DNA of 64,000 nucleotides from Escherichia coli (GTDB taxonomy: Bacteria; Pseudomonadota; Gammaproteobacteria; Enterobacterales; Enterobacteriaceae), in NCBI RefSeq assembly GCF_003334815.1, contig NZ_QOWO01000009.1; one strand, 5' to 3'. How positions within the stretch are numbered: position 1 is the stretch's first letter; the number at the start of each line of letters is the position of its first letter. Shown one piece after another: positions 54,620 through 54,784 of the stretch. Under the pieces are notes generated by a model, which had not been told where the DNA came from, searched no databases, and was given only the letters and a program-made list of their open reading frames with translations. The position numbers and the translations under genes were made by a program.

Positions 54620-54664
54620 AGTTATTTCCTTATTCTTAAGCAGGCGAAACAAAATCAAACGTTG

Positions 54665-54695
54665 AGCATAGTCCTTCCCCTTACGGGAAGGTCAA
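54665..54695 (-). promoter_or_regulatory. cueO MerR-type promoter with CueR operator dyad
   Basis: Minus strand -35 TTGACC (rc of 54690-54695), 19-bp spacer containing the dyad CCTTCC-N7-GGAAGG (54673-54691), -10 TATGCT (rc of 54665-54670). Confidence 0.7.
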
Positions 54696-54784
54696 GCCGC
54701 AGACACAATTTAATCGACAATAATGGTCGTCGCCTCGCTCGCAGTGTGCTAACGTTTATCTTCTTTAAGCCCCTGGTAGAAGCA

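Follow-up and report, generated by a model that had tools for sequence, protein, structure and literature searches.

The 165-bp region between the divergent genes cueO and yacC of Escherichia coli very probably comprises two separate promoter modules, namely PcueO, the CueR-dependent promoter of cueO, and a copper-independent promoter of yacC. In the window, by which we denote the whole 64-kb stretch of analyzed DNA, both genes are part of an E. coli chromosomal segment with the gene order gcd (plus strand), cueO (minus), yacC (plus), speE (plus) and speD (plus), in which cueO is the gene formerly named yacK. The RefSeq annotation contains exactly these genes, and a 2.3-kb query around the site matches 5426 out of 5426 complete E. 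coli genomes. The cueO coding sequence (53069-54619, minus strand) encodes a periplasmic multicopper oxidase with the twin-arginine signal MQRRDFLK, which scores 983 bits against the NCBIfam equivalog NF008205 (cut-off 525). The yacC coding sequence (54785-55132, plus strand) encodes a YacC family pilotin-like protein of the PulS_OutS fold family. Both coding sequences are supported by open reading frames and RefSeq annotation alike. With the cueO ATG at 54619 and the yacC start at 54785, the intergenic interval spans 54620-54784, which agrees to the base with the 165 bp between divergent genes given in the initial annotation.

Anatomy and conservation of the cueO promoter

Read on the cueO (minus) strand, the promoter consists of a -35 hexamer TTGACC (54690-54695), a 19-bp spacer TTCCCGTAAGGGGAAGGAC (54671-54689) that is over-long for sigma-70, and a -10 hexamer TATGCT (54665-54670). 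The hexamers frame a perfect dyad, CCTTCC-N7-GGAAGG, at 54673-54691 (centre 54682), which extends to a 7-5-7 arrangement with the arms CCTTCCC and GGGAAGG. This architecture had been proposed before from the letters alone and is confirmed base for base, with one amendment: the dyad is present and framed by the hexamers as described, but 2 nt of its distal arm are shared with the -35 hexamer, hence it is not fully contained in the spacer. The exact dyad occurs only once in the 64 kb. Likewise, the composite pattern TTGACCTTCC-N7-GGAAGG-NN-TANNNT, with at most three mismatches allowed, has a single occurrence against 0.01 expected per window. A standard sigma-70 scan with spacers of 16-18 bp reported no promoter in the intergenic region, as expected for a spacer of 19 bp. 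The Shine-Dalgarno sequence of cueO, AAGGAA, is read at 54626-54631 (minus strand), where the corresponding TTCC..TT columns of the alignment are at least 95% conserved.

A scan of one genome per species yielded 80 cueO loci, all from Enterobacteriaceae. The derived set of intergenic regions counts 79 members including the window, and 74 unique regions were aligned. The spacer measures 19 bp in all 79 regions. The -35 hexamer is TTGACC in 77 of them (TTGACG in the other two) and the -10 hexamer conforms to TAWGCT in 77 as well (TATCCT and TAGGCT in the remaining two), while the dyad carries zero to three mismatches in the 78 other genomes. Within the species, 5425 of the 5426 complete E. coli genomes contain the 46-nt core, and 5262 records show at least 99% identity. 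In 78 of the 80 loci, yacC divergently adjoins cueO, the exceptions being one contig end and Intestinirhabdus alba. In the latter (L075, 1-2500), the 2.5 kb upstream of the cueO ortholog (79% identity) contain no CueR-type box and no yacC, and this DNA is GC-rich and repeat-like. A different type of variation is found in strain STK78-E (L084; also in ES4), in which an IS10-type ISVsa5 element is inserted at the equivalent of 54660-54668 with the target duplication CGTTGAGCA. As this insertion lies directly downstream of the CueR-type -10, cueO is severed from its copper-responsive promoter in these strains.

That PcueO is a CueR-dependent promoter is textbook knowledge and has been known since 2000. 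Permina et al. 2006 (PMC1526738), citing Outten et al. 2000, describe a CueR site in the "yacC-yacK divergon" and a promoter with a 19-nt spacer. In a 2022 JBC paper (PMC9396075), a PcueO-lacZ fusion serves as a metal-responsive CueR reporter, PcopA and PcueO are called the sole two CueR target promoters, and deletion of both abolishes the CueR-DNA signal in cells. According to a 2026 RNA-seq study of MG1655 (bioRxiv 10.64898/2026.03.12.711415), 2 mM Cu induces cueO 44-fold (log2FC 5.46) and copA 115-fold. The genes shown for the Copper i-modulon by Sastry et al. 2019 are copA, cusA, cusB, cusC, cusF, cusR, cusS and cueO. The supplement of the same study also places copA and cueO in the Zinc i-modulon, which suggests cross-talk between zinc status and the CueR targets. 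In the first sheet of another metal RNA-seq data set (PMC13339815), apparently for silver, cueO is unchanged and yacC changes by +0.47 log2, which is not significant; this sheet tells nothing about the question at hand. Taken together, the likeness to PcopA, the conservation among Enterobacteriaceae, the 44-fold induction by copper and the literature on CueR targets bear out the earlier assignment of a MerR/CueR-type promoter driving cueO.

Transcription starts of cueO and proposed activation

Published start sites were transferred to the window by the relation 54619 + 137083 minus the MG1655 coordinate, and the printed 51-mer served to verify this conversion. In E. coli data obtained without added copper, Kim et al. 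2012 (PMC3415461) list a single cueO start at 54700 (MG1655 137,002; minus strand), preceded by a -10 element TAAATT at 54712-54707, and none around 54659. The CueR-dependent start is therefore predicted from the Klebsiella pneumoniae ortholog, for which the supplement of the same study reports a mapped start 6 nt after its -10 TAAGCT; the sixth base after the -10 in the window is 54659 (minus strand). The 54700 start is situated 5 nt upstream of the CueR -35, in the variable linker of the alignment, and transcripts that begin there must consequently cross the CueR operator. This weak start probably supplies basal cueO expression. It falls in a segment of about 10 bp that is missing from most other genera and that resembles a duplication of an AT-rich block, with ACAATTTAATCG at 54705-54716 beside ACAATAATGGTCG at 54717-54729.

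The mode of activation is borrowed from crystal and cryo-EM work on the CueR-PcopA complex, as summarized in PMC9396075. If PcueO behaves alike, a CueR dimer would occupy the dyad centred at 54682 between TTGACC and TATGCT, hexamers whose 19-bp separation would be too long, and would put them in the wrong phase, for sigma-70 RNA polymerase. When bound to Cu(I), Ag(I) or Au(I), CueR would then kink and under-twist the spacer, which would bring the hexamers into alignment and allow transcription from near 54659.

The yacC promoter and its product

The initial annotation reasoned that the same 165 bp must also hold the yacC promoter. Indeed, the start site table of Kim et al. 2012 (PMC3415461) places a yacC start at 54762 (MG1655 136,940; plus strand), which leaves a 23-nt leader. 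An extended -10 element, TGC-TAACGT, is found at 54747-54755 (plus strand), i.e., at -15 to -7 of this start, with TAACGT at -12 to -7 and TG at -15/-14 as in a textbook example. This element had been predicted from conservation before the start site was consulted: outside the CueR module, no block is better conserved than GTRTGCTAACGTT, and TGN-TAAC[G/T]T occurs 28-29 bp before the yacC ATG in all 79 regions. In the K. pneumoniae data (PMC3415461 supplement), yacC starts map after the equivalent TGC-TAATTT.

A second conserved block, AATAAT(A/G)..TCGTCGC, emerges from the 74 aligned regions at 54719-54735 (plus strand; AATAATAAAGRTCGTCGC in the window), corresponding to -44 to -28 of the yacC promoter. 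Conservation of both blocks (54745-54757 and 54719-54735) goes beyond the strict need of an extended -10, and the non-consensus C and G within TAACGT are retained in 74 out of 79 regions. The blocks may possibly represent a regulator binding site. By eye only, the AT-rich block looks like one half of a Fur box, a likeness that we do not put forward as a Fur site; under gentamicin, YacC was reported to increase along with proteins of the Fur regulon. In E. coli HB101 (L083), an IS1A element at the yacC start codon (equivalent to 54779-54787; 9-bp target duplication GAAGCAATG) separates yacC from its own promoter.

YacC itself matches NCBIfam NF037975 over its full length (196.8 bits, cut-off 80). 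Its score of 38.5 bits against the true GspS pilotin model stays below the cut-off of 75, and sequence matches to OutS and PulS in the PDB are weak. In EPEC, YacC is no functional pilotin for GspD. Direct reading of the protein sequence revealed no obvious His- or Met-rich copper motif. Across the compared loci (L002-L081), YacC is more conserved than CueO, with 83-100% versus 74-98% amino-acid identity. A search for distant YacC homologs returned 440 clusters, and the 120 listed are all at least 85% identical. Many database models extend YacC to 128 amino acids, from a start that would be located upstream of the mapped E. coli transcription start.

Downstream of yacC, no terminator-like site was found on the plus strand between 55133 and 55237, so that read-through from yacC into speED is possible. 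It is nonetheless likely to be minor, since a separate start has been mapped for speE (MG1655 136,504; window 55198) and yacC expression is about 2.5 log2 units below that of speE and uncorrelated with it (r = -0.09), despite the listing of the operon as yacC-speED. A CysB ChIP peak assigned to this operon in the supplement of Sastry 2019 is located at MG1655 135,689, inside speE.

Relation of yacC to copper and CueR

The suggestion that yacC might share the copper-linked regulation of cueO was assessed with the promoter geometry, published expression data and the variation among genera. Among the alternatives to two independent modules, an indirect coupling fares best, yet it is unlikely. Occupancy of PcueO by RNA polymerase and CueR, or of the 54700 start, would then interfere with or stimulate the yacC promoter, possibly through competition for upstream DNA or through transcription-induced supercoiling, with a modest change, most likely a decrease, as the outcome. 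The starts at 54700 and 54762 are indeed divergent, no more than 62 bp separate them, and this interval includes a conserved block. Over 49 of the 278 profiles of an expression compendium, in which cueO covers a range of 2.3 log2 units, yacC and cueO correlate weakly negatively (r = -0.21, Spearman p = 0.06); mean yacC expression is 6.21 in the eight profiles with the highest cueO versus 6.45 in the 18 with the lowest. This correlation is, however, not significant, and the length of the linker differs among genera. A modest copper-dependent decrease of yacC may occur. We give a slightly lower chance, and thus little credence, to the specific picture in which the back-to-back promoters, with a spacing that varies mostly by whole helical turns, are weakly coupled and copper-loaded CueR and polymerase at PcueO, or the 54700 start with its passage through the CueR operator, tune yacC, and possibly read-through into speED, downwards. 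If this picture were true, YacC would have a hidden link to copper stress.

Direct control of yacC by CueR bound to the dyad, which would make YacC a copper-regulated periplasmic protein, is less probable still. What speaks for it is that both genes have the 165 bp in common, that 78 of 80 related genomes retain their divergent arrangement and that the spacing between the modules changes mostly in steps of about 10 bp. Synteny carries little weight here because these close relatives broadly share their gene order. As for the spacing, values cluster mostly around 58.5, 68.5 or 79 bp, which are roughly whole helical turns and might point to some coupling, but reflect few independent events.

The position of the operator argues against such control. 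The dyad centre (54682) lies at -80 from the mapped yacC start, and the edge of the operator is about 35 bp beyond the -35 position of yacC. Given the extended -10 at 54747-54755, the operator is neither placed within a yacC spacer nor overlaps the core elements of the yacC promoter. As regulators of the MerR type work by remodelling the spacer of the promoter that they occupy, there is no canonical route for CueR to yacC from -80. Expression data point in the same direction. In the 2026 RNA-seq study, yacC (b0122), speE and speD are absent from the list of 487 genes at least two-fold up at 2 mM Cu, which is complete down to a fold change of 2.003 at rank 487, and yacC is not in the part of the 8 mM Cu list that was covered. 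Nor does yacC appear in any of the i-modulon summaries provided by Sastry et al. 2019, the Copper one included, and its correlation with cueO has, as given above, a negative sign. Note that yacC was among the promoters assayed under copper in Reg-Seq 2025.

The comparison between genera adds a further argument. Sixty regions have 58-59 bp between the dyad centre and the yacC -10, and 14 regions have 68-70 bp; five single regions measure 79, 65, 55, 103 and 114 bp, respectively. A fixed geometry between operator and yacC promoter is thus not found across species, with 55 to 114 bp between genera, and the DNA between the modules accommodates insertions of 44 and 55 bp (L074 and L018). All length variation in the alignment, in the form of indels of 10-55 bp, is located between GGTCAAG of the cueO -35 and the AT-rich block on the yacC side. 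This confinement to the linker indicates that the cueO and yacC promoters are separable modules. A copper induction of yacC is therefore not supported, as it is contradicted by the promoter geometry and by three expression data sets, which leave room for a small negative effect.

A reading of the dyad as an RNA-level hairpin or terminator, or as a chance palindrome instead of a protein operator, which could draw on the 7-bp GC-rich stem that the 54700 transcript forms in its leader, was rejected and can practically be dismissed: the leader folds no better than shuffled sequences (z = -0.41), a terminator scan found no terminator-like site in the intergenic region, Rfam gave no match (a permissive threshold returned only chance sub-threshold hits outside the intergenic region), conservation follows the hexamers and half-sites while GGAGGG in most genera breaks the perfect stem, and the composite pattern has a chance expectation of 0.01.

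Implications

For PcueO, the result is correct but ordinary and carries little weight beyond bookkeeping. It does illustrate that a reader with only the sequence at hand is able to recognize a MerR-type promoter correctly, and the attached speculation on yacC could be settled from existing data as far as induction is concerned. A by-product is a base-level map of the divergent region with two cueO starts, the CueR operator and the extended -10 of yacC. Adjacency to cueO alone is no reason to annotate YacC as copper-regulated.

Comparison with known systems

The closest counterpart of PcueO is PcopA of E. coli, the paradigm of activation by CueR. In a genome search, the copA promoter sequence matched over its full length in 5423 genomes, 29 nt upstream of copA and divergent from glsA. 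PcopA reads TTGACC-TTCCCCTTGCTGGAAGGTT-TAACCT, compared to TTGACC-TTCCCGTAAGGGGAAGGAC-TATGCT for PcueO. Both have the -35 TTGACC, the 19-bp spacer, the CCTTCC-N7-GGAAGG half-sites and a position between divergent genes, with glsA opposite copA. They differ in the -10 hexamer (TAACCT versus TATGCT) and in the central 7 nt, and PcueO alone has an additional mapped upstream start.

The cueO promoters of K. pneumoniae, Salmonella, Enterobacter and others likewise show TTGACC, a 19-bp spacer, TAWGCT and a divergent yacC (78 of 80 loci). In contrast to the window, most other Enterobacteriaceae have an imperfect distal half-site GGAGGG, and both their leader and their linker to yacC are shorter, by about 11 and 10 bp, respectively. 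The ZntR-dependent PzntA is similar in belonging to the MerR family of promoters and in combining a dyad with an over-long spacer, but its spacer is 20 bp, its half-sites are unrelated and it responds to Zn, Cd and Pb.

The mer operator-promoter of Tn21 and Tn501 (PmerT/PmerR) is the founding divergent promoter of the MerR type. It resembles the cueO-yacC region in having a dyad operator in a 19-bp spacer, activation by spacer distortion and a divergently transcribed gene. In mer, however, MerR represses the divergent merR promoter, which overlaps the operator, whereas yacC has a promoter that starts about 35 bp past the operator and a product that is an unrelated protein and not the regulator.
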